From a virus, in UHGV virus genome UHGV-0033546: a DNA stretch of 64,000 bases. One strand, written 5' to 3'. Positions within the stretch are counted from its first letter, which is position 1. Each line of letters opens with the position of its first letter. This document shows, in pieces, positions 41,893 through 58,701 of the stretch. The notes beneath the pieces were generated by a model. That model was not told the origin of the DNA, ran no database searches, and saw only the letters and a program-made list of their open reading frames with translations. The position numbers and the translations under genes are program-made.

Positions 41893-42074
41893 TGATTCTG
41901 CTCCAAATATGTTTCTATAATTTTCTGAGCGAGATAAACTGCGTTATCTTCAGTTGCATCTTCTAAGAAACTTTCAAAACACTCTGAAATTTCTTCTGTG
42001 TCAATCAACTTTTTTACTTCAATTGGTGTAATTTTCATTTTGTTTTCCGTTTATGTGTTTGTTTTGATAGTTGT

Positions 42075-42104
42075 ATAGTACTACAAAGCTCTATGCTTGT
42101 AAAC
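42075..42104 (-). promoter_or_regulatory. T4-type early promoter
   Basis: minus strand GTTTACA, 18 nt, TACTAT. Confidence 0.55.
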
Positions 42105-42128
42105 AGTTTTGTGAAAAATTTTTGAAAT

Positions 42129-42152
42129 AAAAAAGGGAGCCCGAAGGCTCCC
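42129..42152 (-). terminator. intrinsic terminator (CUUCGG hairpin + T-run)
   Basis: GGGAGCC-UUCG-GGCUCCC followed by T6 on minus strand. Confidence 0.6.
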
Positions 42153-42154
42153 TA

Positions 42155-43168
42155 TCATTTATAATAACTTCGATGGTTTTCAAGATAGACCTTCTCAAGG
42201 AAGTCATCCCAGAAACTCATGTCTACTTTTTGCTGCATACCGTTCTTAGAAGCTTCAGTAGATGCTGCTTCTACTTGATCGACCACATCTTCCAAAAACT
42301 CTTGGACTGTTTTAAATGGATGTTTACCCAACTTCACGTCGAGAATAAATGGAGCGTCTTGAAGTGGATAGACTAAGTCACCAGTTTTGTAAATTTCCAA
42401 TAGTTGAAGTCCACCACGACAAGCATGACTCAGAGCTTTCCAATCAATGCCCTCATTCGCTTCAGCCTTACGAGCACGTTCACCGTATTCAGCATCTAGT
42501 TTGTTCAAAGATTGCTTAAGCTCAATAAGAGAAAGTGTTGTCTGATATTTGCGACCCAACACAGTGTAGAACGTTTGTGGACCTGTTTTCTCATGATTAT
42601 GGAATACCCATTCACAAAATTCGTTCTCTGGAAGACGATGCTTAATATCTTCAATTTTAACGCGACGTTGTCCTTGTGTTCCATCTTCTCGGTAGACATT
42701 CCGTTGATCAGGAATTTGATTAATTACTTTCAACACATCACGTAATGCAGCCAAACGAGAACCTTTAACACCATATTTAGAAGCTTGCTTACGAACATAT
42801 CCTAAATAGGACTTCATGTTGGTTGTATAAAAACGAGAACGGTTGTCTTGAATAAACTTCCACACATCAGGCAAATCAGATTTAACCACTAGTTCAGGTG
42901 GAGTGTGAAGCATATCTAATGCGACAGTTTCGCCATCTGCTGCTAATTTAAAGAAATACTTAAGACTGTATAGTTCATGGTCAATATCATCTTTAGTGTT
43001 TTTAGATGATGTATTGTTAGTGTTTTTACTCATGTGCTCTTTGACATTTCCGATAAGAATATCACGAGCAGGAGGAACAAAAATTTCTTTAAAATCTACA
43101 TCAGATTCTGGGGTAGAAGTTCCATAAAGATGACTACCAAAATAGCTTTTCATTACTGTTTTCATCAT
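42155..43168 (-). CDS. predicted nucleotidyltransferase (Pol-beta superfamily)
   Basis: 337 aa; N-terminal GSHLYGTSTPESDVDF (GS...DxD) at residues 11-26. Confidence 0.6.
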   Translation of the reverse strand: MMKTVMKSYFGSHLYGTSTPESDVDFKEIFVPPARDILIGNVKEHMSKNTNNTSSKNTKDDIDHELYSLKYFFKLAADGETVALDMLHTPPELVVKSDLPDVWKFIQDNRSRFYTTNMKSYLGYVRKQASKYGVKGSRLAALRDVLKVINQIPDQRNVYREDGTQGQRRVKIEDIKHRLPENEFCEWVFHNHEKTGPQTFYTVLGRKYQTTLSLIELKQSLNKLDAEYGERARKAEANEGIDWKALSHACRGGLQLLEIYKTGDLVYPLQDAPFILDVKLGKHPFKTVQEFLEDVVDQVEAASTEASKNGMQQKVDMSFWDDFLEKVYLENHRSYYK

Positions 43169-43626
43169 TCAGCCTTATATTCAATAACAGGACATACTTT
43201 AGCTTTACGAGCTTTTAAAAATTCGACGATAATCGATTTCTTGGGTTGAATAGGAGGTAAACCTTTAGCCTTCCTATCAATATTTTCTACATGTAAAGCA
43301 TAATCCTTTTTCCATTTATAATCTTTATATTTTTCATGTAGTTGCGCAGGAATAACAAATGAACCTATAATAAGTAAAACAATCAAAAGAGCAAATATAA
43401 ATGCTGATGGAAGAAGAGTCCATAAACTACCAAAAATAAGCCAACGCTGTAGGCTTTCTGCACAAATAATTGTTAACCCTACGAGTATAGCACATCCAAA
43501 AATAGAAACGAAAAATGTAGGGATAACAATAGACCAAAAGTATGCACATAGTGTCTTAGGTCGTTTCCATTCGTCGTTAAACAGTTTGAATAATTTATAA
43601 TGCCAAGAGTTTTCATTAATAATCAT
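43165..43626 (-). CDS. hypothetical membrane protein
   Basis: 153 aa; three hydrophobic segments; coupled to downstream gene. Confidence 0.5.
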   Translation of the reverse strand: MIINENSWHYKLFKLFNDEWKRPKTLCAYFWSIVIPTFFVSIFGCAILVGLTIICAESLQRWLIFGSLWTLLPSAFIFALLIVLLIIGSFVIPAQLHEKYKDYKWKKDYALHVENIDRKAKGLPPIQPKKSIIVEFLKARKAKVCPVIEYKAE

Positions 43627-43628
43627 AA

Positions 43629-44150
43629 TTATCCTTTCATTGAAGGTGTAACAGTTGTTAAATACTTAATCATAGCTTCAGCTTCTGATTTTGATAATGA
43701 AATTTCTCCATTGTTTTGACGAATAGAAATAAAATCCGGATGACGGTCACCACCAGCTTTTAAAACACACATATAAGTATCAACTTCATCTTCAATATCT
43801 GAAATGATTGAAGCAGTTCCACACGAATGTGGTTTTTGATAAATCAATACAGCTTTTCTTCCACCGTTTGACTGTTCATAAACTTTTAACACATCAAACA
43901 AATCACTTCTTTTATCAATAGCTAAGATGTTGTTTTCATCTTCAATGTTAAATCCTTCGGATACTTCATAAAGTGTCACCCATAAATCGCCAATATCAAT
44001 AACAGCGTTCACTTTTCCATGACTTTCAAGAGCATGACAAATTTTCTTGATTTCGTCATAACTCATTTTAATAATATCATCTCCTTGAATAAGAAAGATG
44101 TCATTTTTAAATTCAACACGAATTAAACCACTTCCACTTGAAATAAACAT
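43629..44150 (-). CDS. hypothetical protein (paralog of 44157..44708)
   Basis: 173 aa; shared IGDLWV / YLTTVTPSM motifs. Confidence 0.5.
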   Translation of the reverse strand: MFISSGSGLIRVEFKNDIFLIQGDDIIKMSYDEIKKICHALESHGKVNAVIDIGDLWVTLYEVSEGFNIEDENNILAIDKRSDLFDVLKVYEQSNGGRKAVLIYQKPHSCGTASIISDIEDEVDTYMCVLKAGGDRHPDFISIRQNNGEISLSKSEAEAMIKYLTTVTPSMKG

Positions 44151-44156
44151 ATTTCC

Positions 44157-44708
44157 TCACTTTGAAATCATAGTTGGAATGACAGAATCAAGATAAGTCT
44201 TTAGCGCAATAGCTTCGTCTTTGGTAAATGTGACAATATGCACTCGAGAATCATCAATTTGACGAACAAGTACAACATCACCATCTTCATAAGAAGTCTT
44301 GACATCCAAAGTCGTAGTATAGTTTGCAGCTACTGGATTAATAATGCTAGCACTGCGGTCTTTAGCCCATTGAAGTTTAGCCTTTTCGGGTGTTTCGACT
44401 GTTTCAGATTCCAAGAATTCTTTCACCTTGGCAACGAATGTTTCCCAATTGTTGATAGAAATACATGCAAGTTCAGTTTCAATATTACCACCGTGAGAGC
44501 CACGATAAAAACGAACTTGGAGGTCGCCTGTAATAGTTATACTGGTAACTCCTGAGGGAGCATAAGATAAAATCGCAGCCAGTTCCATAGGAAGAATAAT
44601 AATATTATCGTTTCCCTGCGTCAGAACGTATACATTACCACGTTTTTCGATAACCAGGTCACCGAATAAATTAGTTGTTTCAATTACAGCTTTCATATTA
44701 TTCACCAA
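44157..44708 (-). CDS. hypothetical protein (paralog of 43629..44150)
   Basis: 183 aa; TGDLQV / YLDSVIPTM motifs. Confidence 0.5.
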   Translation of the reverse strand: MVNNMKAVIETTNLFGDLVIEKRGNVYVLTQGNDNIIILPMELAAILSYAPSGVTSITITGDLQVRFYRGSHGGNIETELACISINNWETFVAKVKEFLESETVETPEKAKLQWAKDRSASIINPVAANYTTTLDVKTSYEDGDVVLVRQIDDSRVHIVTFTKDEAIALKTYLDSVIPTMISK

Positions 44709-44889
44709 TTAAAGTCTCAATTAATTCTCTTAATTTAAAAGCTTGCTCATTTGTCATTACATACTCCTCTGAATCATATCAATAATGTTGTTCACCAAAT
44801 TATAAGTAAACATTGGGTAATTATATTGAATCATCACATACACAACAAGCAAAACTTTCATTCTCTTCTCCTTGGCAGTTGACAAGATT

Positions 44890-44919
44890 ACTATACCATA
44901 ACCTTGCCAACTTGTAAAC
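44890..44919 (-). promoter_or_regulatory. T4-type early promoter
   Basis: minus strand GTTTACA, 18 nt, TGG-TATAGT. Confidence 0.55.
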
Positions 44920-44921
44920 CA

Positions 44922-45095
44922 TTAAATGACGTTTTCGATAAAATTCTGAAGCTTTGTGTGAGCATCAACCATGATTTTCATTTCTTCCTTTGCGAAAGCT
45001 GTACCTCTTTCCCGAGCAGAATACTCATAGTCAGAAACTGCATTAGCATATTCTTCAATTAGCTTCATTAAAAACATCTGCTTTTCAGTTTTCAT
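44922..45095 (-). CDS. hypothetical small protein (57 aa)
   Basis: ORF(-) below cut-off; ATG overlaps upstream gene end. Confidence 0.3.
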   Translation of the reverse strand: MKTEKQMFLMKLIEEYANAVSDYEYSARERGTAFAKEEMKIMVDAHTKLQNFIENVI

Positions 45096-45279
45096 TATTC
45101 CACCTAATCATTTCAAGATATTGAACTAACTTAGCTTTGGATTTATCCAAATCCTTTTTAGCAGCTTCTATACCGTCGTATGAATATCCTTCACAATGCT
45201 CAACTGCTAATTGGTATGAATCTATTTCAATATCACGTGCTAATTTAATGATTTTTTCAAACTGTTCACGTGTCAGCAT
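45085..45279 (-). CDS. hypothetical protein
   Basis: 64-aa ORF(-). Confidence 0.45.
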   Translation of the reverse strand: MLTREQFEKIIKLARDIEIDSYQLAVEHCEGYSYDGIEAAKKDLDKSKAKLVQYLEMIRWNNEN

Positions 45280-45281
45280 AC

Positions 45282-45521
45282 TTAAACTCTCGTATTATGA
45301 TCGATAATTTCATCAAGAAACATATCTAAAGCTTCTACAGCATTATCAACTTTATCTTCAAGTTCATCAATACCTTTATTTGCAATACCTGACGAAAACC
45401 AAGCAAAGTCGCTAAGTTCCTCATCTGCTTTACGAATTAAAGCTACCAATTCTTTAATCTTATCCGCTTGTTCAATGCTAATCATTATTCCACCACGTAT
45501 GAAAGAGAGAATATTGCACAC
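45282..45521 (-). CDS. hypothetical protein
   Basis: 79-aa ORF(-). Confidence 0.45.
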
Positions 45522-45718
45522 GCCATATGTGTTGCAGCTTCATCACACATATCATAACGTTTCTTAAGAAGTTCTACAAGCTCTTCACTAGTAACTTCAT
45601 CCATGTCGACGAAAAAATCACCATTAATGATGACGTAGATATTTCCTTCTTGATTGAGTGCTTCAATTTTCATGATGTTCTCCTCTTTATCTGATAGTTG
45701 TATAGTATCACAGCTCAA
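45485..45718 (-). CDS. hypothetical protein
   Basis: 77-aa ORF(-) downstream of early promoter. Confidence 0.45.
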
Positions 45719-45731
45719 ATGGAAAGTAAAC
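45702..45731 (-). promoter_or_regulatory. T4-type early promoter
   Basis: minus strand GTTTACT, 18 nt, TACTAT; same module as at 4682..4747. Confidence 0.55.
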
Positions 45732-45741
45732 CGGTAAAATG

Positions 45742-45763
45742 AAAAAAGTCTCCCGAAGGAGAC
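45742..45763 (-). terminator. intrinsic terminator (CUUCGG hairpin + T-run)
   Basis: GUCUCC-UUCG-GGAGAC followed by T6 on minus strand. Confidence 0.6.
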
Positions 45764-45768
45764 TAATG

Positions 45769-46155
45769 TTATTCGAGGGAAAGAAGATATTTGCTCTGGT
45801 AAAACATCCCAGTAATATCATCTATCGTGCTTTGAATGGCTGGAGGCATTTCTTTATAAATGCTGTTAGATTGGTCTAGTATGTGATCAATCATTTTAAT
45901 TGTGTCGGTAGGAAGTTTACTGGCATCTGGAATAGAAGGCGTGTATTTTCTACCAGAATACCCCAAATATTGCTCACCAAATTTGTCAATCAAATCTGGC
46001 AACTCAGAAAAAATAAAATCGTATGCTTTGTGTCTAGCATAACTTTTAGTTTCAAAATGTGCAGAATGAAAATAAGCTTGTGCAGCCATTAATAAACCTG
46101 AGTATTCATCTGCCTTCGAAGGTTTTCCACTCTGTGAAAAGTCGCTGAATTTCAT
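45769..46155 (-). CDS. hypothetical protein
   Basis: 128-aa ORF(-). Confidence 0.5.
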
Positions 46156-46445
46156 TCAGTCTCCAATTTAATGTTCATAATTCTAGCGTATGATTGTGCC
46201 ATCTCCGCGCCTCGTTCTATACATTCAAAATCGGAAGAGCACGGGTCATTTTTATAAGTCGTTCTCATAAAACTATAGAACTGTTCAGATGATTCTACGC
46301 TTTTATTTTCAAAAAGCATATAAACATGTCTAATACCAGATTCCATAAATTTATCAAAATGAGGATCGACATTCGCTTCAATTGGTGGAGATAAAGCAAA
46401 CGCTAATCCTAGCATGGCAAATAGTGCCGTTGCTTTTAAGGCCAT
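46152..46445 (-). CDS. rI: lysis inhibition regulator RI
   Basis: 97 aa with N-terminal signal-anchor; size and position next to tk as T4 rI. Confidence 0.7.
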   Translation of the reverse strand: MALKATALFAMLGLAFALSPPIEANVDPHFDKFMESGIRHVYMLFENKSVESSEQFYSFMRTTYKNDPCSSDFECIERGAEMAQSYARIMNIKLETE

Positions 46446-46457
46446 AAAGGCCTCCTA

Positions 46458-46670
46458 TCATTTTTGTCCTGTATTTACTTTATGCCGATGTACGGCCTTA
46501 ACTTTATCAAGGTATTTTTCAAAATTTCGCAATCTGGTATAGTCTGCCGGAGATTGGTTGAGTGATACTTCTCGACGCAAAGCTGAAATAACATTTCCAA
46601 CTTCCCTACGAATTTCATCTAATTGAAGCACAGTAAGATTGCGAAGTTGCTTTTCAGTTAATTGTAGCAT
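46458..46670 (-). CDS. hypothetical protein
   Basis: 70-aa ORF(-). Confidence 0.45.
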
Positions 46671-46712
46671 ATATACCCCTTTAGTTAGATAAACCTATTT
46701 ATAACTTTTGCA

Positions 46713-47294
46713 CTAACCGAGCTTTTTAGTTAATTCATTCCAATGTTTTCTACATAAAGAAACATAAATTTCATCACCAATACAGATTTGATTACCTTCT
46801 TTAACAGGTGTTCCATCTTCCATTAATCGAGCTGTCATAATCGCTTTTTTACCACAATGACAAACTGCCTTTAGTTCAATAAGTTTATCTGCAATCGCTA
46901 AAAGTTCTTTAGAACCTTCGAATAATTTTCCAGCGAAATCAGTTCTTAATCCATAAGCCATAACAGGAACATTATATGTATCAACAATTCGGCTTAATTG
47001 GTGCACCTGTTCAGTTTTTAAAAACTGAGCTTCATCTACAAATACGCAATGAATATCTTTTTGTGCTTCAGCCCATTTATAGAACTCGAAAATATCCATA
47101 TCATCCGTAATAATATTCGCTTCCTGTTTAATTCCAATGCGAGAAACGACTTCACAAACAGAATCGCGAGTATCAATAGCAGGCTTAAGAACTAATACAC
47201 CCATTCCGCGTTCTTTATAATTATGCGCAGCAGTCAAAAGAGAAGCAGATTTTCCAGCATTCATTGCTGCATAAGTAAAAATTAAACTCGCCAT
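46713..47294 (-). CDS. tk: thymidine kinase
   Basis: 193 aa; P-loop AMNAGKS; C-terminal zinc motif CHCGKK...C..C. Confidence 0.85.
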   Translation of the reverse strand: MASLIFTYAAMNAGKSASLLTAAHNYKERGMGVLVLKPAIDTRDSVCEVVSRIGIKQEANIITDDMDIFEFYKWAEAQKDIHCVFVDEAQFLKTEQVHQLSRIVDTYNVPVMAYGLRTDFAGKLFEGSKELLAIADKLIELKAVCHCGKKAIMTARLMEDGTPVKEGNQICIGDEIYVSLCRKHWNELTKKLG

Positions 47295-47303
47295 ATCACC
47301 TTC

Positions 47304-47489
47304 TTAAAGCGTATTCACATAAGCTATTAATTCGTTTTCTTTCTTATCAAACCGACCAGCAAATTCTTCCTGCTGTTCGGGAGATATCGGGCCATATTCA
47401 TCATAAAAGGCGTTTGCTTCTGTATGCTCATCTAGAAGTTCATGGATAAGCTCAAACAATTTATCTTTTTGTTCTTTACTTAGGCTCAT
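47304..47489 (-). CDS. hypothetical protein
   Basis: 61-aa acidic ORF(-). Confidence 0.45.
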   Translation of the reverse strand: MSLSKEQKDKLFELIHELLDEHTEANAFYDEYGPISPEQQEEFAGRFDKKENELIAYVNTL

Positions 47490-47659
47490 ATATTAATTTC
47501 CAGAAGTTTTAAAATAATTCGCTTTTGCTTAAATATTTCCATAGTTAAATGATCAGTATCTTTTTGACCAATTCCAATGGCAAAACCTTTATTAGCAGCG
47601 AGTTCAATTAAATTATCAAGTTCATGTAACACTTCGTATTGTAACTCAGAGCTATTCAT
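47486..47659 (-). CDS. hypothetical small protein (57 aa)
   Basis: ATGA overlaps at both ends with neighbours. Confidence 0.3.
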   Translation of the reverse strand: MNSSELQYEVLHELDNLIELAANKGFAIGIGQKDTDHLTMEIFKQKRIILKLLEINI

Positions 47660-47883
47660 TTCGGTTTACCTTCTTTAACGAAATCAGGATAAGGATAAAA
47701 TCCTGAATAAAATCCTTCGCCTTTATGATTGATGCATCCTTTATTAGAACAATAGCACCAATAATCAAAATCACAAGCCATTTCATCATTACATAAAGCA
47801 AATACAACTGGCCATTCGCACTTTTCGCAGTGGGCATTTTTAAGAATACTAGTTTGGCTCATAACCATGTAACCTTTAAGCAA
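47656..47883 (-). CDS. hypothetical Cys-rich protein
   Basis: 75 aa; CEKCEW...C..C.C...C. Confidence 0.45.
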   Translation of the reverse strand: MLKGYMVMSQTSILKNAHCEKCEWPVVFALCNDEMACDFDYWCYCSNKGCINHKGEGFYSGFYPYPDFVKEGKPK

Positions 47884-48071
47884 TATTCTTCTACGTGTTG
47901 TTTACGACCTTTCTTATCAATAAAGGTATATTCAACGAATGTTCCAATGTAGTCTTTATCTACATCATGTGGACTATTAATTGGGCATTTAGTACGGCAA
48001 ATGCGTTCCCATTGACGAATAATTACTGCTTTGTTTTTAGGATCAAACGGATGCGGGTAATGTGCTTTCAT
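47859..48071 (-). CDS. hypothetical protein
   Basis: 70-aa ORF(-). Confidence 0.45.
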   Translation of the reverse strand: MKAHYPHPFDPKNKAVIIRQWERICRTKCPINSPHDVDKDYIGTFVEYTFIDKKGRKQHVEEYCLKVTWL

Positions 48072-48522
48072 AATCCACCACTATTAAATCAATATCAGGA
48101 GTAAACATGTCGATTAATTTAGAAACCTTATCCCAATCACCGCCAGCAATACCACAACCTATACGTGGAATGTAAATTACTGGTTTAAACAAAAGGGTTT
48201 CTGCCTGTAGATTTAATTCTATCATACAGTTTACTAAAGCACCATAATCAAGATTAGAACCCGGTTCGTATTGCGTATACAAATTATAGCACATACTAAA
48301 TCCTGTAGGATTATGTTTAAAAACAATAGACATGTCGCCTAATTTATCACGAGAACCGTACTCGGTAGTGGTTTTATCTATTTCTAAAATTTTGGGATAG
48401 GCTCTTGCTAATTGACCCGCTACGCCAGAGCCCATTGTATGGAAGCAATTGCACCCGTGCGCAATAATATTACCTCCAAGAAAGAGGGCGACAATATCGC
48501 CCTTGATATATTTTACAATCAT
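48043..48522 (-). CDS. macro-domain protein (predicted ADP-ribose binding/hydrolase)
   Basis: 159 aa; YIKGDIVALF..GNIIAHGCNC...MGSGVAGQL and IPRIGCGIAGGDW resemble macro-domain Gly-rich loops. Confidence 0.6.
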   Translation of the reverse strand: MIVKYIKGDIVALFLGGNIIAHGCNCFHTMGSGVAGQLARAYPKILEIDKTTTEYGSRDKLGDMSIVFKHNPTGFSMCYNLYTQYEPGSNLDYGALVNCMIELNLQAETLLFKPVIYIPRIGCGIAGGDWDKVSKLIDMFTPDIDLIVVDYESTLPASV

Positions 48523-48866
48523 CTAGTACTCAATCCTCGATTATAAGAATCTACTAAACGGTCAACCATTGAACGACAAGCGGCTTTGTCTTTTTCCTCC
48601 GCGACTGAGCATTCTAAGGTATTCCATTTTTTAGCATATCGTTTTAATAATGTATCGTTTTTGTATCTGCTTGATTTATCTCTTTCTCCGTCTTTATATG
48701 CATATATTAATTTCTGCGCAAATTCAGCTTGACATGCTTTATTTTTCCCACAATAATCTGCCGCAGTGCGGTTTACATACTCTCTAATTTCAGTATATGA
48801 TGTATCTGCTGACGCAGAAGCAGAAATTGAAATTAATCCTATACATAAAACCAAAATTTTAGTCAT
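48519..48866 (-). CDS. secreted hypothetical protein
   Basis: 115 aa; signal peptide MTKILVLCIGLISISASASA. Confidence 0.5.
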   Translation of the reverse strand: MTKILVLCIGLISISASASADTSYTEIREYVNRTAADYCGKNKACQAEFAQKLIYAYKDGERDKSSRYKNDTLLKRYAKKWNTLECSVAEEKDKAACRSMVDRLVDSYNRGLSTR

Positions 48867-49404
48867 TTACTATTTCCAAAAGTTTATTATTTTTAAGGTA
48901 ATTAGCCTTTTCTAGGACTTCAGAAGCATATTTAGAACCTGCTTTAACATTCCATCCCGAATTATAAGAGGATATTGCTTTTCTTATATCGCCCTTATGT
49001 ATATTTAACCAATAAGAAAGTTCAATGTACGCCCAGGAAGCTGAATTGGACCGTTTATTCAACATTCTTTTTATTTCAGCATCGGTCATATTATAACCAA
49101 GTTCCTTAACTCTTGCTCGCATAGTTGGCAAATAATTTTGGAACATTCCATAGGCATGATGCTTTGGTTTAGATTTTAAATTAACTCCGCCAGAGCTTTC
49201 TTGCCATAAAATGGCTGCCATTATATGACCTAATCCACTCTTATGAACATTTTGGTGTGTTTTATATTTTCCATCCTTAGAAAACTGTTCCCCGAATTGA
49301 TACGCGTAACGCATGTTATCGAGTTGGACATTACTGAAAGTATGCTCGGAGCTATGTGCCATCATAGAAATGGCCAATAGACCAGCGAGTAGTGCTTTTC
49401 TCAT
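48859..49404 (-). CDS. secreted lysozyme-like (SLT-type) protein
   Basis: 181 aa; signal peptide; WQESSGG catalytic-Glu motif. Confidence 0.55.
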   Translation of the reverse strand: MRKALLAGLLAISMMAHSSEHTFSNVQLDNMRYAYQFGEQFSKDGKYKTHQNVHKSGLGHIMAAILWQESSGGVNLKSKPKHHAYGMFQNYLPTMRARVKELGYNMTDAEIKRMLNKRSNSASWAYIELSYWLNIHKGDIRKAISSYNSGWNVKAGSKYASEVLEKANYLKNNKLLEIVND

Positions 49405-49411
49405 GTTTACC

Positions 49412-49873
49412 TCATTGAGTTTTAATTACTGCTTTAGAAGCCTTTCCTGGTAAACGACGACTGTTGATAATTGCCATCCTACATTGAAGTGACGGGTCTT
49501 TGAACTTCGCATTAGGTTTACAAACCGTAAATCCAAGCCAAAGATTTCCATCTGTGATTTCTAAACGTCCAGGACGATATTCAACTCCATCAATAAAATC
49601 CTCGTCAATATCAGGACGCGGAGGCATACTCAGGAATTCATTAACTTCTAAAACATGGTCTTTTATTTTATGGAATAATTCAAAAACATATGTCTCATCA
49701 ATCTCCCGTTGAATTGCACGATCAAGAAGATGTTGAGAATATTTTAGATGAAACGATGAGACTCCTGCTGCTTTTGATGCCTCACGAATCTCATTGTTAA
49801 TTTGACGAAACTCCGACTCAAAGTGACGACGAAGCTTATTTCGACGGATAAAAACTTCTGTGTTGATAGTCAT
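49412..49873 (-). CDS. regB: endoribonuclease RegB
   Basis: 153 aa matching recalled T4 RegB. Confidence 0.85.
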   Translation of the reverse strand: MTINTEVFIRRNKLRRHFESEFRQINNEIREASKAAGVSSFHLKYSQHLLDRAIQREIDETYVFELFHKIKDHVLEVNEFLSMPPRPDIDEDFIDGVEYRPGRLEITDGNLWLGFTVCKPNAKFKDPSLQCRMAIINSRRLPGKASKAVIKTQ

Positions 49874-49899
49874 GTTATTCTCCTCTTAACTGATAGGAA

Positions 49900-49929
49900 A
49901 ATTATACCACAGTCAAGAGGAAAAGTAAA
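49900..49929 (-). promoter_or_regulatory. T4-type early promoter
   Basis: minus strand GTTTACT, 18 nt, TGG-TATAAT upstream of regB. Confidence 0.6.
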
Positions 49930-49932
49930 CAG

Positions 49933-50211
49933 TTATTCTTTAAATCTAATCAATTTATTCATAGACTTTGTAACTTCTGCACGGACCTCATGCAGGTTTT
50001 TAAGCTGTTCAAGACGTTGCTCATAGTAAGCAATTTCATCTTCTTCGAGACAGTCGTCAGAATCTTCTTTAAGATAACGCGCATAGTCCTGGAAAGCTTT
50101 ACGAACTACTTCTTGGAAGTCATCAAGACTTTGAATTTTCTTAGGAGCAACAGATACACGACGAGGGGCGGTATAATACTCGTAACCAAACCCTGCGCTT
50201 AATTGAGCCAT
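49933..50211 (-). CDS. hypothetical protein (one of two Acb2/Vs.4 positional candidates)
   Basis: 92 aa from ATG 50211 (AGGAAA SD); overlaps upstream ORF by 71 nt. Confidence 0.4.
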
Positions 50212-50476
50212 TAATATTTTTCCTCTGGTTGGAACACTGCACGACAAGCCCACATACTGGCTTCTTTGAGTTTCGTTTAGCAATAGTTAACTGATCGAGG
50301 CTTTCGGCGTAATTCTTCGCGAATTCATAGTCTTCACAATTATCTAGTGCTTCCCAGAATTCGTCATATAAAGCGGAAAAGATAAGTCCTAAACGAACTT
50401 CAGCGTCTTTGATAGCATTCACTTTACCGATTTTCTCTTCAGTATGTGGTTTATAACCTTTAATATCTTCAATCAT
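50141..50476 (-). CDS. hypothetical protein (boundaries uncertain)
   Basis: 111 aa from ATG 50476 (ATGA with upstream stop); low-complexity C-terminus, so a frameshift is possible. Confidence 0.4.
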
Positions 50477-50690
50477 ATTTGACTTCCTCGCCAGTACCCA
50501 AATCATATTCAACTAAACGAATAGGTTCATGAATGCCATATCCTTGAACAGAAATTTCTGTCGTAGGATAAATTCCATCAATATCACCCATATTCCATGC
50601 CTCATTAAATTGTTGTTCGCCTGAATTACTAAACCATTCAGCGAAAGCATTTAGTACATCTTCAGAACCTTCAATAATTATCTTTGCCAT
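50469..50690 (-). CDS. hypothetical protein
   Basis: 73-aa acidic ORF(-). Confidence 0.45.
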   Translation of the reverse strand: MAKIIIEGSEDVLNAFAEWFSNSGEQQFNEAWNMGDIDGIYPTTEISVQGYGIHEPIRLVEYDLGTGEEVKYD

Positions 50691-51052
50691 TATAAGCTCT
50701 CAGTAAAGGTACGAGCGATAACGTCGCGCTGCTGTTCCGGAGTCAGAGAGTTAAAGCGAACTGCATAACCGGATACACGGATGGTCAGCTGCGGATATTT
50801 TTCCGGATGCTTAACTGCATCTTCCAGAGTTTCACGACGCAGAACGTTAACGTTCAGGTGTTGACCACCTTCAATTTTAACTGTAGGCTGTGACTCAATT
50901 TCAATTTCACGGGCATGCAAACCATAGAAAATTTCTGGGTCTACAAAAGAGTCCTCTTTAAAAGTTTTAGAGACAATAATTCGTGCTTGAATACCATCTT
51001 CAAAATAAATAGTACCTTTATGTGTGCCTTCAAGAATTTGATATGCTTTCAT
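50690..51052 (-). CDS. autonomous glycyl radical cofactor (GrcA/YfiD-like)
   Basis: 120 aa; C-terminal [59 protein letters not shown] with RVSGY glycyl-radical motif. Confidence 0.7.
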
Positions 51053-51058
51053 ATAACC

Positions 51059-51388
51059 TCAATTAGAAAATAAATTTATCCAAGATTGTTCTTTAATTAA
51101 AAATGGCTCAGAATCATATGCCATTAAACTTTGGGTAATTAATCCTTTAAATGGTCCATCAATAAATTCCATTGTAAAATATGGAATTTTATTCATTAAC
51201 CGTGCATTAGGAGCAGTGCACAAAACTCTGCATCCTTTGAATACACCTTTCTGTAATTTATATTGCTTGGGATAAAATTCGCTCAAGACGTTGTTATTTG
51301 CTAAAATTTCAAAATGATTCACCAACTTATTTTTAATAGTTTTTGGCGAAAAATAAAGATATTCAAAAAGCTGCGCATCTGTCATCAT
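51059..51388 (-). CDS. hypothetical protein
   Basis: 109 aa from ATG 51388 (ATGATGA junction). Confidence 0.45.
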   Translation of the reverse strand: MMTDAQLFEYLYFSPKTIKNKLVNHFEILANNNVLSEFYPKQYKLQKGVFKGCRVLCTAPNARLMNKIPYFTMEFIDGPFKGLITQSLMAYDSEPFLIKEQSWINLFSN

Positions 51389-51924
51389 TGCATTCCAATT
51401 ACGAAAAACTGTGGACGAGTAATACCACCAATGCAACATTTACTATTGCAGCAGTAGTGTACAGTGTCCATATGGGCGCTATAAATCTTATCCATATCAG
51501 GAGATTTAACAGGCTCATCAATTATATACAAAATTCGCGAAAGCGATAAACCTATAAACTTGCTTCCTTTATTACCAATAAAACTACGGACAGAATCGGT
51601 AAATAAACGAAAACGTATATCGTCATTAGAATAACGCGAAAATTCCTTTTTGATGTTATCTGCAGAAATTTTAGCGTAAGCTGAAGTATTAGAAAGAACA
51701 ATAACTGTTCCGCCATCATACAGCCAATTAGCAGCAAAGTTAGTCACAGCAGTTGATTTACCGGATTGACGTCCACCATCTAGTCGAAGAGTGCAATACT
51801 GTTTAAGCAAGTCTTCAAATGGCAAGATATAATCGTTTTTACAAATTTCTTCTACTCTAGCATCAGAATGGTGTGTAAAAGCATTCATCAGGGATAGATA
51901 AGGACCAGTCAAAAATGTTCTCAT
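51385..51924 (-). CDS. hypothetical P-loop protein
   Basis: 179 aa from ATG 51924; Walker A-like GGRQSGKST. Confidence 0.5.
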   Translation of the reverse strand: MRTFLTGPYLSLMNAFTHHSDARVEEICKNDYILPFEDLLKQYCTLRLDGGRQSGKSTAVTNFAANWLYDGGTVIVLSNTSAYAKISADNIKKEFSRYSNDDIRFRLFTDSVRSFIGNKGSKFIGLSLSRILYIIDEPVKSPDMDKIYSAHMDTVHYCCNSKCCIGGITRPQFFVIGMQ

Positions 51925-52077
51925 TTTGTTCTCTCTAGATTTGGGCCATTCCATGGCACATGAATTGTCCATTCCTGTATTTACCCATTACCGCGCCCGG
52001 GCTCGACCTTATTACAGGTTGGCGGGAATCCCTCACAGAATCATGAGGTCCAGGTTGTTCCCATGTTATTTACTGTA

Positions 52078-52551
52078 TTATTTAAATGATTTGACGTACT
52101 GAACAGAACCTTTGCTATTCACGAAAGCGATTTTACCATTTTTGTTATACATGGTAGCAGTACGCTGATAGCCATAAGTTTGCTTACCAGATTGATAACC
52201 AACTAATGCAAAATTATCTTCGCCCATTTTATTCTGTTTAGCACGAATACGCTCATGACCGTGAGCCATAAGAACCTTAGCATCGCCAGTTGCAATGGAT
52301 CTACGAGTTTTTTCATCTTCAACTGTATTAACAAAGTCGTCAAATGAATCAAATTTAGCATGAGATTTATTATACAGTTTTCCATCTACTGCATAATTAT
52401 ATCCCTGTACATCCATCTCAACTTCTGTACCATCATCCAATACAGCAGTGATTTTTTGACCTTTTTTAAATTTCAAAAGATCAGTAAAAGATTCAGCAAT
52501 AATTTGAGAATTAATAGCTGCTTCAGTGATAAATTCTTGATATGTTTTCAT
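52078..52551 (-). CDS. internal (capsid-packaged) protein
   Basis: 157 aa; N-terminal capsid-targeting sequence MKTYQEFITEA; ip locus next to denV/e. Confidence 0.6.
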   Translation of the reverse strand: MKTYQEFITEAAINSQIIAESFTDLLKFKKGQKITAVLDDGTEVEMDVQGYNYAVDGKLYNKSHAKFDSFDDFVNTVEDEKTRRSIATGDAKVLMAHGHERIRAKQNKMGEDNFALVGYQSGKQTYGYQRTATMYNKNGKIAFVNSKGSVQYVKSFK

Positions 52552-52560
52552 GTGTTTCCT

Positions 52561-52977
52561 TTAAATGTAAATATTTTTACCGTAATACTTATACCAGTGT
52601 GGTTTCATTAAAATTTTTTCATCGAGTCGTTGTTGACTCAACTTAATAGCTGATTTGCATGGGTTATAATCATTTTTCCATTCTACTGGAATATCGCTGA
52701 TGTCAGGAACTTCAGTATCTTTTATACTGAACCCGCGTTTTAAGCATTCCGTTATAATGTCTGATTGACGCTTTCGCAAAAATTCTAACTTATCGTAAAA
52801 GAACGTAACATGACCAGAACCTAAAATAAACTCGGAAGATATTTTAAAATCTTTAACTCTCTTACCATTTGCCACATGTTTACGAACTATACCAAAAACG
52901 CGTGGCAATTCACGGTATTCTGCAATTAAATGCTGATCAGCAAGTTCAGATACTAAAGTCAAATTAATACGAGTCAT
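52561..52977 (-). CDS. denV: endonuclease V (pyrimidine dimer glycosylase)
   Basis: 138 aa near-identical to recalled T4 endo V. Confidence 0.9.
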
Positions 52978-53002
52978 TTTATCCCTCCAAGTAACTGTGA
53001 AT

Positions 53003-53032
53003 ATACTATCACAATTCTAGGAGAAAGTAAAC
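53003..53032 (-). promoter_or_regulatory. T4-type early promoter
   Basis: minus strand GTTTACT, 18 nt, TAGTAT upstream of denV. Confidence 0.55.
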
Positions 53033-53036
53033 AACT

Positions 53037-53567
<531 letters not shown>

Positions 53568-54008
53568 TTAAAAGAGGTTGTTCATTATTCGGTAAAGTGA
53601 AGGACCCATCACATATTGCCATTGAGTACGAGGAATAAGAGCAAAAGCGTCCATCTCTGGAATCATAACTCCATCTTTATTTTCAAAATAAGACTCGCAA
53701 TGGCAATTTCTGAACATCTCATGCTCTACTGGAATCGTATAATAAAATAACTGCAGGTCTTTATTACTAGAATATTTAAATACACCTAGGTCTTCTAGAA
53801 GGTCTGGATTATAATTGCTAAAACCAGTCTCTTCTAAGCATTCTCTTTTTGCAGCTTCCAGCGCATTCAAATCAGAACTTTCTACACGCCCCTTTGGAAT
53901 ATCCCAACGATGCGCCATCATTCCAGGCTTACGAGAACCGGTGACCCGCCCCATAAATAAATCTTTATCTTCTGTCATAAAGATAATACCAGCTGATAGT
54001 GTTTTCAT
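53568..54008 (-). CDS. nudE: Nudix hydrolase NudE
   Basis: 146 aa; Nudix box GRVESSDLNALEAAKRECLEETGF. Confidence 0.75.
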   Translation of the reverse strand: MKTLSAGIIFMTEDKDLFMGRVTGSRKPGMMAHRWDIPKGRVESSDLNALEAAKRECLEETGFSNYNPDLLEDLGVFKYSSNKDLQLFYYTIPVEHEMFRNCHCESYFENKDGVMIPEMDAFALIPRTQWQYVMGPSLYRIMNNLF

Positions 54009-54493
54009 TTTAATTTCCTACATTCAGTGATAAAGTTATTTAAATTTTGAGTATATTTCTTTTCATCAAAAATCTTTTGTTGTCTACGTAAACGCCATGG
54101 CATTTCAATGAACACACACCATATTCCTGATATTACTGCTGTTATAAAAACATTAACAAGCAGAGTAAAAAGAGCCCAATCTCCTATTCTATCCATTGGA
54201 TTTTTTCCAAAGAAATAAAATACGAATGATGACATAGGAAAACTAATGATATACCACAGAAGCATATTCTTGCCTGTAAACCAATCAGCGTTCGTTAACT
54301 TAGCGCGACCGTTTTGAATACACACGAATTTATCGTCTGTTAAAGTAGATGGCTTAACTGCTTGATATCCCATTCTAAACTCCCTAATTAACAAATTTTT
54401 CATATCTTCGGAACAACCATTCCAGTCAACTCTATCAACTGAAATGCCATCATCCCCATCATCTAAATCATACCAGCGAGTTTTAAAAATCAT
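54005..54493 (-). CDS. hypothetical membrane protein
   Basis: 162 aa; two TM segments. Confidence 0.5.
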   Translation of the reverse strand: MIFKTRWYDLDDGDDGISVDRVDWNGCSEDMKNLLIREFRMGYQAVKPSTLTDDKFVCIQNGRAKLTNADWFTGKNMLLWYIISFPMSSFVFYFFGKNPMDRIGDWALFTLLVNVFITAVISGIWCVFIEMPWRLRRQQKIFDEKKYTQNLNNFITECRKLK

Positions 54494-54852
54494 TTAATTT
54501 TCCTACAATCACTCACAAACTCTTTCATTGATTCGTTTTCAATATAAGACATGTAGCTATTATATTCCTTTAATTGTATTTTGTAATCCTTTTTTCTTTG
54601 CCAATTTATTTTAAAATTATCATAATGAAAATATAACATGGTACCAAAGAATGAAAATAATGAAATCGCTATAGTATAACGAAGTTCACTCCAAACCTCT
54701 GTTATAATTACTGTGCCGTCAATGTTTAAAATAAAACAGTCAATTAACAATCCAATAAGACTACCAGCAAGAGCTGTAAATACTGATACGGCAAGAATTA
54801 ATAGTGCCTCAGGAAACGAATATTTGACTTTATTTAATTTTGGCTTTTGCAT
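54490..54852 (-). CDS. hypothetical membrane protein
   Basis: 120 aa; three TM segments. Confidence 0.5.
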   Translation of the reverse strand: MQKPKLNKVKYSFPEALLILAVSVFTALAGSLIGLLIDCFILNIDGTVIITEVWSELRYTIAISLFSFFGTMLYFHYDNFKINWQRKKDYKIQLKEYNSYMSYIENESMKEFVSDCRKIK

Positions 54853-54921
54853 CGTGATTCCTTAACAAATTTCATAATTTCATCAAATTCATACGCAGCA
54901 AGTTTAAGTTGGTGTTCCTTT

Positions 54922-55221
54922 TTAATCTTTCCAATCGCGTACGCGTTTACGGTAATGTCTTCCTTGATACCAGTATCCTATCCAATTTACGGGTACTAAT
55001 AAAAGTGGAATTATCATTGGAAGAATTAGTGTTGACACAAATATTACACCAAATTTATTGGCAGTCATAACGTCTATAACCATTCCAACTACAAATGATA
55101 CAACTACCACAGGACCCATTAATACATCAGTAGAAATTATCTGACGCTTTAATTCATACTTCAACGGTTTACTTGGAAGGTATAGTGATGGTTTTGACAT
55201 ATTCTCTACATTCCTTAACAA
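54922..55221 (-). CDS. hypothetical membrane protein
   Basis: 99-aa ORF(-); start may be ATG 55200. Confidence 0.45.
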   Translation of the reverse strand: MLRNVENMSKPSLYLPSKPLKYELKRQIISTDVLMGPVVVVSFVVGMVIDVMTANKFGVIFVSTLILPMIIPLLLVPVNWIGYWYQGRHYRKRVRDWKD

Positions 55222-55783
55222 ATTTTTCTAATAATAAATCGCTTTCAAAATTGGGATTTTCTACGAATTTATCAAAAAGATCATCAACAATAGTTAAGAT
55301 ATTCTTTTTACTAAGAATACGTTTATTTTCATGCTTCGTTTCAGAATCAACTATAAGAGTAAAGAAATATTTCTTGCCATGAAATTTTACAGTAGTATCA
55401 ATATAGAACAAATTTGACTTTTGTAAATTACGTTTAAACCATGCGTCACTTAAACTATAAACGCCAAGATAATCATAATCGTCATTTAAATAACAAACTG
55501 TCCATTCAGGAGAAATGAAATCAGTAAATTCAACATCAAAATCACATGTCAATGAATGAATTGATTCAATGCTGTTAATAAGTATTCCAGGACGTATTAA
55601 AGACTTTTTACCTCTGGAAAATCTTCCAGAAAGGCTTTCATCAGTTTCATATGAAGAACCCCAATAATAATTACGTCCTTCTGCCATACGTTTAAGAGCA
55701 TTTAGTAATTGGTCTGGAACATCAACCTGTCTTTGGAACTCTTCAAACATTGAATTGAAATCACTTTGCATTTTCATTTTCAT
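55169..55783 (-). CDS. hypothetical protein
   Basis: 204-aa ORF(-). Confidence 0.5.
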   Translation of the reverse strand: MKMKMQSDFNSMFEEFQRQVDVPDQLLNALKRMAEGRNYYWGSSYETDESLSGRFSRGKKSLIRPGILINSIESIHSLTCDFDVEFTDFISPEWTVCYLNDDYDYLGVYSLSDAWFKRNLQKSNLFYIDTTVKFHGKKYFFTLIVDSETKHENKRILSKKNILTIVDDLFDKFVENPNFESDLLLEKFVKECREYVKTITIPSK

Positions 55784-55803
55784 TCCTATTTACTCCAAGT
55801 AAT

Positions 55804-55819
55804 AGGGGCCGAAGCCCCT
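55804..55819 (-). terminator. CUUCGG-tetraloop hairpin
   Basis: AGGGGC-UUCG-GCCCCU on minus strand just downstream of 55825..56418. Confidence 0.45.
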
Positions 55820-55824
55820 TATCA

Positions 55825-56418
55825 TTATTTCAGAGAATTAATGTATTCCTGAACATCGGCAGAGGTAGTTTCAACCCCAGAAATATTACCGTTAAAGGTT
55901 TCAACTCGAGCAAGGGTATCTTCAATATCAACCTTAGTCAGTGCTGCAATTTCAACTACATCATCGGCAGTACTAATTCCAAGGGCATTTGCTGCACGAG
56001 TTTCACGGATATATTCCAATTTAACCGCAAGTTCTTGACGAGCATCATCTAACTCAACTACTTTCTTGGCGATTTCAATTCGCATTTCAGCATAACCGTC
56101 AGCCTTAGTAGTCAACTGCTCAGCTGTTCGACGATATAGTAAACCGAGTTTAGCATGCATTGTTACATCTTGACCTTCGGAAAGAAGTTTACGAATTTCA
56201 CGCTCTTTTGATTCGGCCTGTCGATTCTTTTCGATAACAAGTTCACGAATACGTTTTTCTTCGTTAATAGATTTAATAGAAGCAGTTTTTAGATCTTTAA
56301 TTTTATCAAGTAGTTTTGCTGCTGCAGCAGTATACTGTTCTTCGACAGATAGATTTTTAGCCATAGCAGAACCAAGTTTAGTGCGAATAAACTCAACAAT
56401 TTTCTTCAGTGTGTTCAT
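55825..56418 (-). CDS. coiled-coil protein, possible PspA/IM30-like
   Basis: 197 aa predicted all-helical; architecture resembles PspA; weak evidence. Confidence 0.45.
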
Positions 56419-56522
56419 AGTATTTCCTTAGGTTGATTAAGATTTAAAATCCGTAAAAGTAGTATTATACTCTATCATCAAGTCACAGGCTCATAATATC
56501 TCAATCATGAGCCTATGTAAAC

Positions 56523-56798
56523 TTATTTCATATTATTGAAATATTCTTCTGCGATTTCGTCGTTATCATGGTAAACTTTAGAAGACAGTTTAACATAACC
56601 TTCAGCAGTGAACATGTTAATCACAACCTTTACAGTATACCACTGACCGTCTTCATTACCCATTACTGCGTAAGTTTCAAACATCGGATGATCAGGACCG
56701 ATAACTTTAATATCATTCACTGTACGACCAAAATCTTCTGAAACGCATTTCATAAAGAAGTTAAACAGTTCGCCGTAATTATCCATTTCATTCTCCAA
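56523..56798 (-). CDS. hypothetical protein
   Basis: 91-aa acidic ORF(-). Confidence 0.5.
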   Translation of the reverse strand: MENEMDNYGELFNFFMKCVSEDFGRTVNDIKVIGPDHPMFETYAVMGNEDGQWYTVKVVINMFTAEGYVKLSSKVYHDNDEIAEEYFNNMK

Positions 56799-56829
56799 GT
56801 TGTTTTCTGTATCAGTAGTTGATAGTTGT

Positions 56830-56859
56830 ATAGTACCATGGAAGAACAGTCTTGTAAAC
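56830..56859 (-). promoter_or_regulatory. T4-type early promoter
   Basis: minus strand GTTTACA, 18 nt, TGG-TACTAT; part of 63-bp repeat shared with 13666..13728. Confidence 0.55.
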
Positions 56860-56992
56860 AGTTTTGTGAAAAAATTTTTAAAAATTTTTAGGGAATTCTA
56901 GGGCAGGGAGGGGAAATTAAAAGGTAGGATAATATATTATAAAGGGTATAAACTAAATGATGCCTAGAAAGGCCCGGAAAGGCCTAGATACC

Positions 56993-57020
56993 AAAAAGCC
57001 CCAACCTTTCGGCTGGGGCT
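56993..57020 (-). terminator. intrinsic terminator (repeat copy 1)
   Basis: AGCCCCAGCC-GAAA-GGUUGGGGCU hairpin + T5 on minus strand; near-identical copy at 57551..57579. Confidence 0.6.
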
Positions 57021-57027
57021 AAGAATG

Positions 57028-57501
57028 TTATTTGATTTGTTTAGCAGACCAAATGCGGTCTTTAATAATTTTTTGGATGTCTTCAACATACTCTAGGTCA
57101 TGAGCATGTGGATTATCTTTAAAACTATGAGCTCGCGCAAGTTTCTGGCCTTCGGTCTTAATTACCAAAAGTTCTTTAAGGATAGCTTCATATTTAGAGA
57201 TAATTCCTTTAACAATATTTTTCTCTTGTGCGGCTTTAGGATCTGCTTTAGGAGCAGGTTTACCCGAAGCCTTTGCAAAAGCAGCTCCAGTAGCAACTAG
57301 ACTTTTCCAGGCCATACTAACCGCATTTCCCGTAAATCCTTCTGCTTTCATGTCGCGAGCAAATTGGAATCGTGATTCGTCAGAAGCATCTTTATAAGAA
57401 TATTTACCCGCTGCAATGGCTGCTTTTGCAACAGCTTGAATTTCGGTGCTAGATGCTTCATTTAACACCGCTTCATTTAAAAATTGAGTATATGATTTCA
57501 T
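57028..57501 (-). CDS. internal (capsid-packaged) protein
   Basis: 157 aa; capsid-targeting-like N-terminus MKSYTQFLNEA; Ala/Lys-rich; flanked by duplicated terminators. Confidence 0.6.
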   Translation of the reverse strand: MKSYTQFLNEAVLNEASSTEIQAVAKAAIAAGKYSYKDASDESRFQFARDMKAEGFTGNAVSMAWKSLVATGAAFAKASGKPAPKADPKAAQEKNIVKGIISKYEAILKELLVIKTEGQKLARAHSFKDNPHAHDLEYVEDIQKIIKDRIWSAKQIK

Positions 57502-57541
57502 CTTATTTCCTGTTTTAATTCGTGGATTTAATATACTACTA

Positions 57542-57549
57542 TATTTATA
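57542..57549 (-). promoter_or_regulatory. late promoter TATAAATA
   Basis: exact TATAAATA on minus strand about 40 nt upstream of 57501 ATG. Confidence 0.5.
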
Positions 57550-57550
57550 C

Positions 57551-57579
57551 TAAAAAGCCCCAACCTTTCGGTCGGGGCT
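57551..57579 (-). terminator. intrinsic terminator (repeat copy 2)
   Basis: AGCCCCGACC-GAAA-GGUUGGGGCU hairpin + T5 on minus strand. Confidence 0.6.
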
Positions 57580-57885
57580 AAGCCTTGCGGCAACCTTGTC
57601 GGGGTTCCACCTGCTAAGGCAAGTGTTTGTACGAAACGCCGGGATTCGAACCCGGTTATTAAGTAGTTGACGCTACTCAATATTTTTAAAAGGCCATATC
57701 TCGACCATATCCGAACGTTCCGTCAAAAACGCTACTCGGCTTACGGTAAAGATATTTCCTCGAATCGATAATTCGGTGCGCCGTTTCAGCTGTGATAGTA
57801 AAGAACCAGAACACAGTAAAACTGTGGGAGGAACTATACTCCAGGGAACATCAGTCCGACGACTTACCGGTAGCGACCCGGTTTC

Positions 57886-58236
57886 TTAATATTCTTTTAA
57901 AGTATCAATCTGTTCACGACGTTTACGCCATAAATCAATTGCTTCATACGCAGATTCAGCATTTCGAATTAGTCGGCATTTGTGTAAAGACTTATGATTT
58001 TGATATTGTGTAGATAACGGAATTTTATCTAAAAGGTCTTTACGTTCAAAGTATTCGTAACCATCTAAGCCAAATGAACGATTTTTAAGAAATTGCCAAT
58101 GACCATATTCGTTTTCGACATAAACATAATCCGCGTGTTGATAAAGCAAATTAATTACACGTTCAGAAATAACAGTGTCATTGTGATTAAAATAAAATGT
58201 TAAATCATGAACTACTAAATAAACATTACCTTTCAT
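57886..58236 (-). CDS. hypothetical protein adjacent to tRNA cluster
   Basis: 116-aa ORF(-); no confident motif. Confidence 0.45.
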   Translation of the reverse strand: MKGNVYLVVHDLTFYFNHNDTVISERVINLLYQHADYVYVENEYGHWQFLKNRSFGLDGYEYFERKDLLDKIPLSTQYQNHKSLHKCRLIRNAESAYEAIDLWRKRREQIDTLKEY

Positions 58237-58252
58237 ATTTTCCTCACTTAAT

Positions 58253-58328
58253 TGGTCGAGGCAGTAGGGATCGAACCTACGACCTAGGACTTAGAAGGTC
58301 CTTGCTCTTCCTTCTGAGCTATGCCCCG
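58253..58328 (-). tRNA. tRNA-Arg (anticodon TCT)
   Basis: manual cloverleaf: acceptor CGGGGCA/TGCCTCG, anticodon loop CTTCTAA, T-loop TTCGATC, CCA encoded. Confidence 0.8.
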
Positions 58329-58332
58329 TAAT

Positions 58333-58408
58333 TGGGGTGACCGATGGGAGTCGAACCCATGACTACGAGAATCACAATCTCGAGTTCTACCAACTGAACT
58401 ACGGCCAC
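58333..58408 (-). tRNA. tRNA-His (anticodon GTG)
   Basis: manual cloverleaf: anticodon loop TTGTGAT, T-arm ATGGG-TTCGACT-CCCAT, discriminator C, CCA encoded. Confidence 0.7.
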
Positions 58409-58522
58409 ATTAATACCTACTCCAACAATCAAGATGTCTTCACACGAAATTAAGAGAAGAATGATCAGTTCAACCCTTATAATCGCGTCAAGTAGATATT
58501 AATGTGACAGTTGTCACAAATT

Positions 58523-58597: not shown

Positions 58598-58601
58598 AAA
58601 T

Positions 58602-58688: not shown

Positions 58689-58701
58689 CTAATTCATAAT
58701 T

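Follow-up and report, generated by a model that had tools for sequence, protein, structure and literature searches.

Two small open reading frames (ORFs) overlap just upstream of regB in a T4-like phage, and the question raised by this locus was whether they mark a frameshift, a sequencing error or a real gene overlap, and whether the anti-CBASS sponge Acb2 is still encoded by one of them. The window, i.e., the whole stretch of DNA that was analysed, was 64,000 nucleotides long. The source phage was found to be a Tequatrovirus; the best INPHARED record matched it at 96.7% identity across 1 kb and 95.5% across 24 kb, and the phage of the window itself was not among the INPHARED records. We consider it quite probable that the locus carries a natural acb2 (vs.4) null, produced by a real single-A deletion, beside a working tadIV-1 (vs.3); in this reading the two anti-defence sponge genes are neighbours on the minus strand, upstream of regB, and are transcribed together.

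Gene order and overlap at the locus

Both ORFs were recovered on the minus strand with the coordinates and the 71-nt overlap (50141..50211) given in the initial annotation, and the tail sequence quoted there was reproduced exactly. The region contained the following features:

49412..49873: regB, 99.3% identical to T4
49901..49929, minus strand: sigma-70-like site, the strongest of the region, with TTTACT and a TG-extended TATAAT spaced by 17 nt
49933..50211, minus strand: 92-aa ORF, vs.3/tadIV-1, with ATG at 50211 and stop at 49933-49935 (from the ORF list)
50141..50476, minus strand: 111-aa ORF, the frameshifted vs.4/acb2 as now read, with ATG at 50476 and stop at 50141-50143
50469..50690, minus strand: 73-aa ORF, vs.5-like, directly upstream of acb2 and overlapping the acb2 start by 8 nt
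50690..51052, minus strand: vs.6, autonomous glycyl-radical cofactor (GrcA/YfiD-like), 98.3% identical to T4 Vs.6

The order regB, vs.3, vs.4, which had been expected from T4, was found to be kept, and the block corresponded to the T4 vs-regB-vs.3-vs.8 block. The downstream genes in the block were vs.1, vs and the macro-domain gene tk.4, and the 73-aa ORF followed by the GrcA-like vs.6 was present upstream of acb2. T4 Vs.4, which is Acb2 (PDB 7UQ2, PF24729), occupies the same slot between the vs.5-like ORF and vs.3. A Shine-Dalgarno-like GAGG(A) sequence was present upstream of both the 92-aa and the 111-aa ORF. In T4, 236Ecol005PP and 4E10, vs.4 was an intact, uninterrupted frame of 267 nt and vs.3 was 279 nt long, and the two genes shared only the single A of a TAATG stop/start junction; the vs.4 frame was shifted in the phage teqskov and in a contig of the run ERR6183312, both described below. 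On sequence grounds, the overlap of the 92-aa and 111-aa ORFs is not a chance ORF artefact.

The sigma-70-like site (TTTACT-17-TATAAT, 49929 to 49901) lies after the vs.3 stop and ahead of the regB start and is consistent with the T4 early promoter of regB. In a search for sigma-70-like promoters between acb2 and vs.3, none stood out. The 73-aa ORF was also found in 236Ecol005PP, 4E10 and teqskov, and it had no match in Pfam. The T4 reference vs.5 (58 aa) matched this ORF in two frames, at residues 1-17 and 18-58, and T4's own vs.5 looks frameshifted relative to most of its relatives.

The acb2 frameshift and its predicted product

Comparison with T4 Vs.3 and Vs.4, which the initial annotation had proposed, identified the 92-aa ORF as Vs.3 (88 of 92 residues identical, 95.7%) and the 111-aa ORF as Vs.4 up to residue 67, but a complete Acb2 was not obtained from either. 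PDB 7UQ2 (T4 Vs.4) matched the 111-aa product with E=1.1e-39 over residues 1-72 only. With T4 Vs.4 as the query, tblastn gave two matches, one for residues 1-67 in frame and the other for residues 68-88, at 50276..50214, in another frame with 100% identity; a three-frame translation agreed with tblastn on the out-of-frame T68-Y88. The 111-aa product was thus an Acb2 homologue by both the 7UQ2 match and the tblastn match to residues 1-67, and the suspicion that one of the two ORFs is Acb2 was borne out within these residues. T4 Vs.4 was found to be 88 aa long, and not about 94 aa as first given. The parts of the gene were as follows:

50276..50476, minus strand: in-frame acb2, codons M1-K67, 65/67 residues identical to T4
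50276..50278, minus strand: the run shortened by the 1-nt deletion, AAA as against the AAAA of T4, 236Ecol005PP and 4E10
50211..50276, minus strand: out-of-frame acb2 3' remnant, codons T68-Y88, 21/21 residues identical to T4, in the -1 frame

The sequence GCT AAA ACG of T4, 236Ecol005PP and 4E10 was replaced by GCT AAA CG(A), and this was the sole gap in the acb2 alignment. The homologue in 236Ecol005PP is annotated as 'anti-CBASS protein 2'. With one A missing at codons 67/68, the ribosome would leave the Acb2 frame after K67 and add 44 unrelated residues before it meets a stop. In the sequence TAATG, the former acb2 stop codon (TAA, 50211-50213) overlaps with the start codon of vs.3; because of the lost A, the ribosome misses this stop and crosses the ribosome-binding site and the start of vs.3, and both the tail of the 111-aa product and the 71-nt overlap are explained in this way. 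The first 67 residues of the product were Acb2 and the last 44 were an out-of-frame tail, which ended 71 nt inside vs.3. The tail had been described as low-complexity, but it was found to be out-of-frame coding sequence.

The copy shared residues 1-67 with T4 Vs.4 at 65 of 67 positions, including Y8, H11, K23, L29 and A66, and its 3' codons were identical to those of T4. Unlike the 88-aa T4 protein, it lacked one A, had residues 68-88 out of frame, and encoded a product of 111 aa with an unrelated tail and half of the Pfam domain. The two differences from T4 within residues 1-67 were D34S and C50Y. Relaxed constraint in this retained part was considered and rejected, as both are common natural variants (among 100 Acb2 cluster representatives, 16 have S34 and 8 have Y50) and no sign of decay was seen. 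The codons of the T68-Y88 remnant showed no decay either, so that the lesion would be recent, reversible or, just possibly, an artefact.

The effect on the protein was examined at the level of the domain, the fold and the single residues. In the PF24729 profile (Acb2/Tad1 hairpin), the 111-aa product covered positions 1-31 of 58 with 29.8 bits, whereas T4 Vs.4 covered positions 1-58 with 71.4 bits. The AF2 model of the intact Acb2 contained helices at residues 13-45 and 50-81 with a mean pLDDT of 87. In the model of the 111-aa product the second helix stopped at residue 71, and residues 75-111 had a pLDDT below 50; the complete helical hairpin domain expected of an Acb2 was therefore absent. 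The ligand contacts Y8, H11 and K23 were kept, whereas R79 and F82 were encoded only in the -1 frame. Among the hexamer-interface residues L29 and A66 were kept but A73 and A77 were gone. Altogether A73, S74, A77, C78, R79, F82 and P84 were lost from the product, and according to published work one substitution at any of these positions is enough to inactivate T4 Acb2. Residues 3-31 and L70-Y88 were the most conserved parts of Acb2 among the 100 cluster representatives, and L70-Y88 was at least 95% conserved except for the variable A80 and Q83.

Previous studies have shown what the missing residues do. In the hexamer of T4 Vs.4 with cGAMP, the bases of the ligand are stacked against Y8 and F82, and hydrogen bonds or salt bridges come from Y8, H11, K23 and R79; binding falls more than 25-fold in F82A, neither the hexamer nor binding survives mutations at L29, A66, A73 and A77, and S74N and A77I were recovered as loss-of-function mutations in a genetic screen (Jenson et al. 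2023, PMC10097602). Mutations in acb2 were found in 14 of 15 T4 Panoptes escapers, including C78W, F82C and P84Q (Sullivan et al. 2025, PMC12657218, Supplementary Table 2), and T68M lowers the affinity of Acb2 (companion mCpol paper, PMC12657230). T4-type Acb2 does not bind cA3 (Cao et al., PMC10312549), therefore there is no second site for the N-terminal part to serve.

The frameshifted product would lack the C-terminal tail as well as the 14 distal residues of the hairpin's second helix. The loss of A73 and A77 from the hexamer interface and of S74, R79 and F82 from the ligand contacts would leave it capable of neither hexamer formation nor cyclic dinucleotide binding. It is predicted not to hexamerise, or to bind 3',3'-cGAMP or 2',3'-c-di-AMP at nanomolar affinity. 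We strongly infer the loss of Acb2 function because the published loss-of-function residues from position 68 onward are all missing. Most likely, the allele provides no working cGAMP sponge and is a naturally occurring null or, failing that, a severe hypomorph. A 67-residue fragment with Y8, H11 and K23 could in principle keep weak activity.

Carriers of the deletion and alternative explanations

An 86-nt probe across the deletion matched 414 phage records, and 100% identity was found only in teqskov (GenBank and RefSeq copies); the best remaining records among the matches listed had 86/87 identities and contained AAAA. The allele was rare: of some 410-470 close relatives in INPHARED, one phage had it. 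The teqskov product gp246 (QHR64330.1 / YP_010074647.1) is a 98-aa 'hypothetical protein' and overlaps vs.3 by 32 nt. This phage was sequenced on the Illumina NextSeq, in a study whose assemblies were all covered 20x or more. A second carrier, the Logan contig ERR6183312_24745 (run ERR6183312), contained the same A4-to-A3 deletion, with its acb2 product P0001 at 254..550 of the contig. One protein-database cluster was found to hold the frameshifted products of both teqskov and this contig. An ENA contig (ERZ27287157 k141_1181088) agreed with the window at every position over 1701 nt, deletion included; it may come from the same phage or source, so that the independent sightings number two to three, and not four.

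The two products from teqskov and ERR6183312 had the same deletion and the same shifted tail as the copy studied here, but their tails stopped after 31 residues, where the out-of-frame TGA is retained (32-nt overlap with vs.3), as compared with 44 residues here. The acb2 5' haplotypes of both also differed from the present copy. The three carriers differed mutually at about 4% of the positions in the surrounding 1.3-1.7 kb, and the ERR6183312 copy contained different SNPs within 70 nt of the deletion. Every deletion-bearing 86-nt haplotype had an exact AAAA counterpart, the region being nearly invariant; this is compatible with one origin followed by recombination as well as with repeated deletion. 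A search of INPHARED gave no record identical to the ERR6183312 deletion haplotype. The ERR6183312 copy also contained D4Y, at a position occupied by D in 100/100 Acb2 cluster representatives; this substitution may reflect relaxed constraint after inactivation.

Exact-pattern scans for the deletion junction ATTGCTAAACGAAACTCAAAGAAGC gave 0 matches in IMG/VR, JGI metagenome contigs and GTDB genomes; the wild-type junction itself had only 4 matches in IMG/VR, and these collections say little on frequency. When all phage records were searched by tblastn with T4 Acb2, 1232 matches were obtained, 1228 of which covered at least 80% of the query, but matches in different frames were merged, so that these numbers take frameshifted and intact copies together.

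A third member of the protein cluster, P0102 (ENA, 645-nt contig), was considered as the same allele and rejected, since its truncation is different. It was Acb2-like, 64 aa long, and diverged after residue 55 (...ELAKNAVTGSVSFC). It is either another natural disruption of acb2 or a contig artefact.

The A4-to-A3 deletion appears to be a real but rare allele, which is much more likely than a sequencing error. Were it an error of sequencing or assembly, the phage would have AAAA, acb2 would be intact at 88 aa and the overlap would be artefactual. This explanation is improbable. A single-base difference in a homopolymer, the perfect preservation of the 21 downstream codons, the rarity of the allele and the perhaps non-independent identical ENA contig are all compatible with it, but the same deletion was found in teqskov (Illumina NextSeq, at least 20x) and in the ERR6183312 Logan contig with different flanking SNPs, and an A4 run is too short for a typical Illumina homopolymer-error site. 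When 40000..64000 (about 24 kb) was compared with 4E10, the vs.4 deletion was the only uncompensated 1-nt indel in the well-aligned coding sequence; therefore, the assembly is not homopolymer-error-prone. Frameshift, sequencing error and real overlap had initially been left side by side; the missing A speaks for the first, the independent assemblies speak against the second, and the third is taken up below.

A further explanation accepts the deletion but lets the ribosome repair it by slipping back at the only plausible -1 slip site:

50264..50267, minus strand: A_AAG quadruplet (within TCA AAG), three codons after the deletion

Slippage at this site would yield an 88-aa Acb2 with the native C-terminus and only T68R, K69N and L70S changed, i.e., a leaky or dose-tuned allele. 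A_AAG is a -1 shift-prone motif in E. coli, as in the IS3 and dnaX-type sites; in the present copy the -1 frame is open from the motif through to the native stop, and the downstream codons are intact. We nevertheless regard such a bypass as very improbable. The 68 nt downstream folded no better than shuffled sequence (z=+1.05), no Shine-Dalgarno-like stimulator was found upstream, and the same nucleotides occur in another frame in the wild-type genes, so the motif did not evolve for slippage. By our own estimate the basal yield would be at a low percent level, which is nearly useless for a stoichiometric sponge, and residue 68 is itself sensitive, T68M having lowered the affinity (PMC12657230).

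That the overlap was selected, the 111-aa product being a new functional Acb2 variant with a C-terminal extension from an alternative vs.3 frame, is scarcely credible: the frame is open for 44 codons beyond the shift and the allele is found in more than one phage, but the tail is 31 residues long in teqskov and ERR6183312 and 44 here (longer because a synonymous vs.3 change, TAT to TAC, removes the out-of-frame TGA), has a pLDDT below 50, finds homologues only in the two products with the same deletion, and replaces residues essential to hexamer formation and ligand binding (PMC10097602).

tadIV-1, expected phenotype and annotation

The reading of the locus as a natural acb2 null beside a working tadIV-1 depends also on the second gene. 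[quoted passage not shown] Its activity is limited to long homologues of about 90 aa, the short ones of about 70 aa being inactive and all the tested long ones active, and R17, R18 and K24 are important for N7-cADPR binding in T4 Vs.3 (PMC13243611). The 92-aa product matched PDB 9WIW, the apo TadIV-1 of the phage UPEC07, over its whole length (residues 1-92, E=6.2e-38). Its length places it in the 'long' TadIV-1 group (about 90 aa, with an N-terminal flexible loop), its N-terminal 37 residues were the same as those of T4, and R17, R18 and K24 (T4 numbering) were all retained. The T4 gene lies in the same position before regB and likewise encodes the long form with the N-terminal loop; the two proteins differed by four substitutions, N38K, Q52D, T64E and S81T. 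The vs.3/tadIV-1 copy looks fully functional, and its product would, by close homology, sequester N7-cADPR and thereby block type IV Thoeris. A Pfam match of Vs.3 to Tex_N was rejected as sub-threshold (19 bits, with a cutoff of 32).

One difference from T4 concerns the translation of this gene. The vs.3 start is uncoupled from the acb2 stop in the window, and the upstream ribosomes read 71 nt into vs.3, which is not the case in T4. The loss of the TAATG junction may alter TadIV-1 translation, which would be uncoupled from acb2 termination, with the start perhaps occluded by read-through ribosomes.

Judged by sequence, the tadIV-1 copy showed every feature expected of its family, whereas the acb2 copy showed the homology of its family but lacked the complete domain, the full set of ligand contacts and the hexamer interface. 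A further anti-CBASS gene was found in the window:

60689..61144, minus strand: acb1 (T4 57B, anti-CBASS cyclic-nucleotide phosphodiesterase), intact, 100% identical to the T4 protein

The coding sequences of acb1 and tadIV-1 were thus kept intact despite the acb2 lesion. CBASS protects about 10-20-fold against T4, but about 10,000-20,000-fold when acb2 is deleted, and the deletion also abolishes restriction by Panoptes (PMC12657218). By inference from such results, the phage should be more sensitive to cGAMP-type CBASS, which the intact acb1 would offset only in part, and should escape guards that are triggered by Acb2, such as Panoptes.

Natural T4-like phages that resist Panoptes include Bas35 with Acb2 T68M, G2540 with a deletion of acb2, and Bas43 with a nonsense mutation in acb1 (PMC12657230). 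The allele described here fits this known pattern of natural acb2/acb1 loss in T4-like phages. The laboratory T4 escapers from Panoptes (PMC12657218) and the natural alleles (PMC12657230) likewise disable Acb2, and the region lost here spans C78W, F82C, P84Q and T68M. The deleted A at codons 67/68 was not among the alleles of either study (PMC12657218, PMC12657230), and the A4 run was hit in 0/15 of the laboratory escapers (PMC12657218). That the allele is rare and did not turn up in the laboratory escapers speaks against a hotspot or a strong sweep, and its rarity lends no support to strong positive selection. Guard systems such as Panoptes might have selected the allele, a suggestion which we make only tentatively and place clearly below even chances.

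It is rather unlikely that the deleted-A acb2 is a naturally circulating, selectable OFF state and not a dead end. The idea arises because the A-run is short, the codons downstream are all intact so that a single added A would restore function, and the deletion was found on at least two flanking haplotypes in different T4-like phages. If it were true, phage populations could switch off Acb2 to evade guards that detect sponges (Panoptes), with Acb1 and TadIV-1 still in place, and could recover it through reversion or recombination once CBASS pressure came back; leaky -1 slippage at A_AAG could add a low residual dose.

With acb2 read as a natural null, an annotation should give the 92-aa ORF as an intact tadIV-1 (vs.3) and the 111-aa ORF as a frameshifted acb2 (vs.4) or an acb2 pseudogene, instead of two overlapping hypothetical proteins. 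In the ENA contig ERZ27287157 k141_1181088, no gene was called over the acb2 interval (2743..3001), which shows that the frameshift makes automatic annotation drop the gene. Both families have already been characterised, the natural loss of acb2 has been described, and the allele was already present in GenBank, unremarked, in teqskov. To the natural acb2 loss-of-function alleles of T4-like phages our study adds one more, which at least two or three assemblies contain. For carriers such as teqskov, escape from Panoptes-type guards, hypersensitivity to cGAMP-CBASS and retained resistance to type IV Thoeris are predicted. The allele is a data point on the cost-benefit balance of sponge carriage and involves no new system or mechanism.

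Another shortened small gene was found elsewhere in the window:

54922..55221, minus strand: homologue of 4E10 g131c (130 aa), with an early end (...RVRDWKD) caused by a 14-nt deletion near 54927 relative to 4E10

This homologue may be a second C-terminally truncated small gene in the window. It also contained a 12-nt deletion further in.
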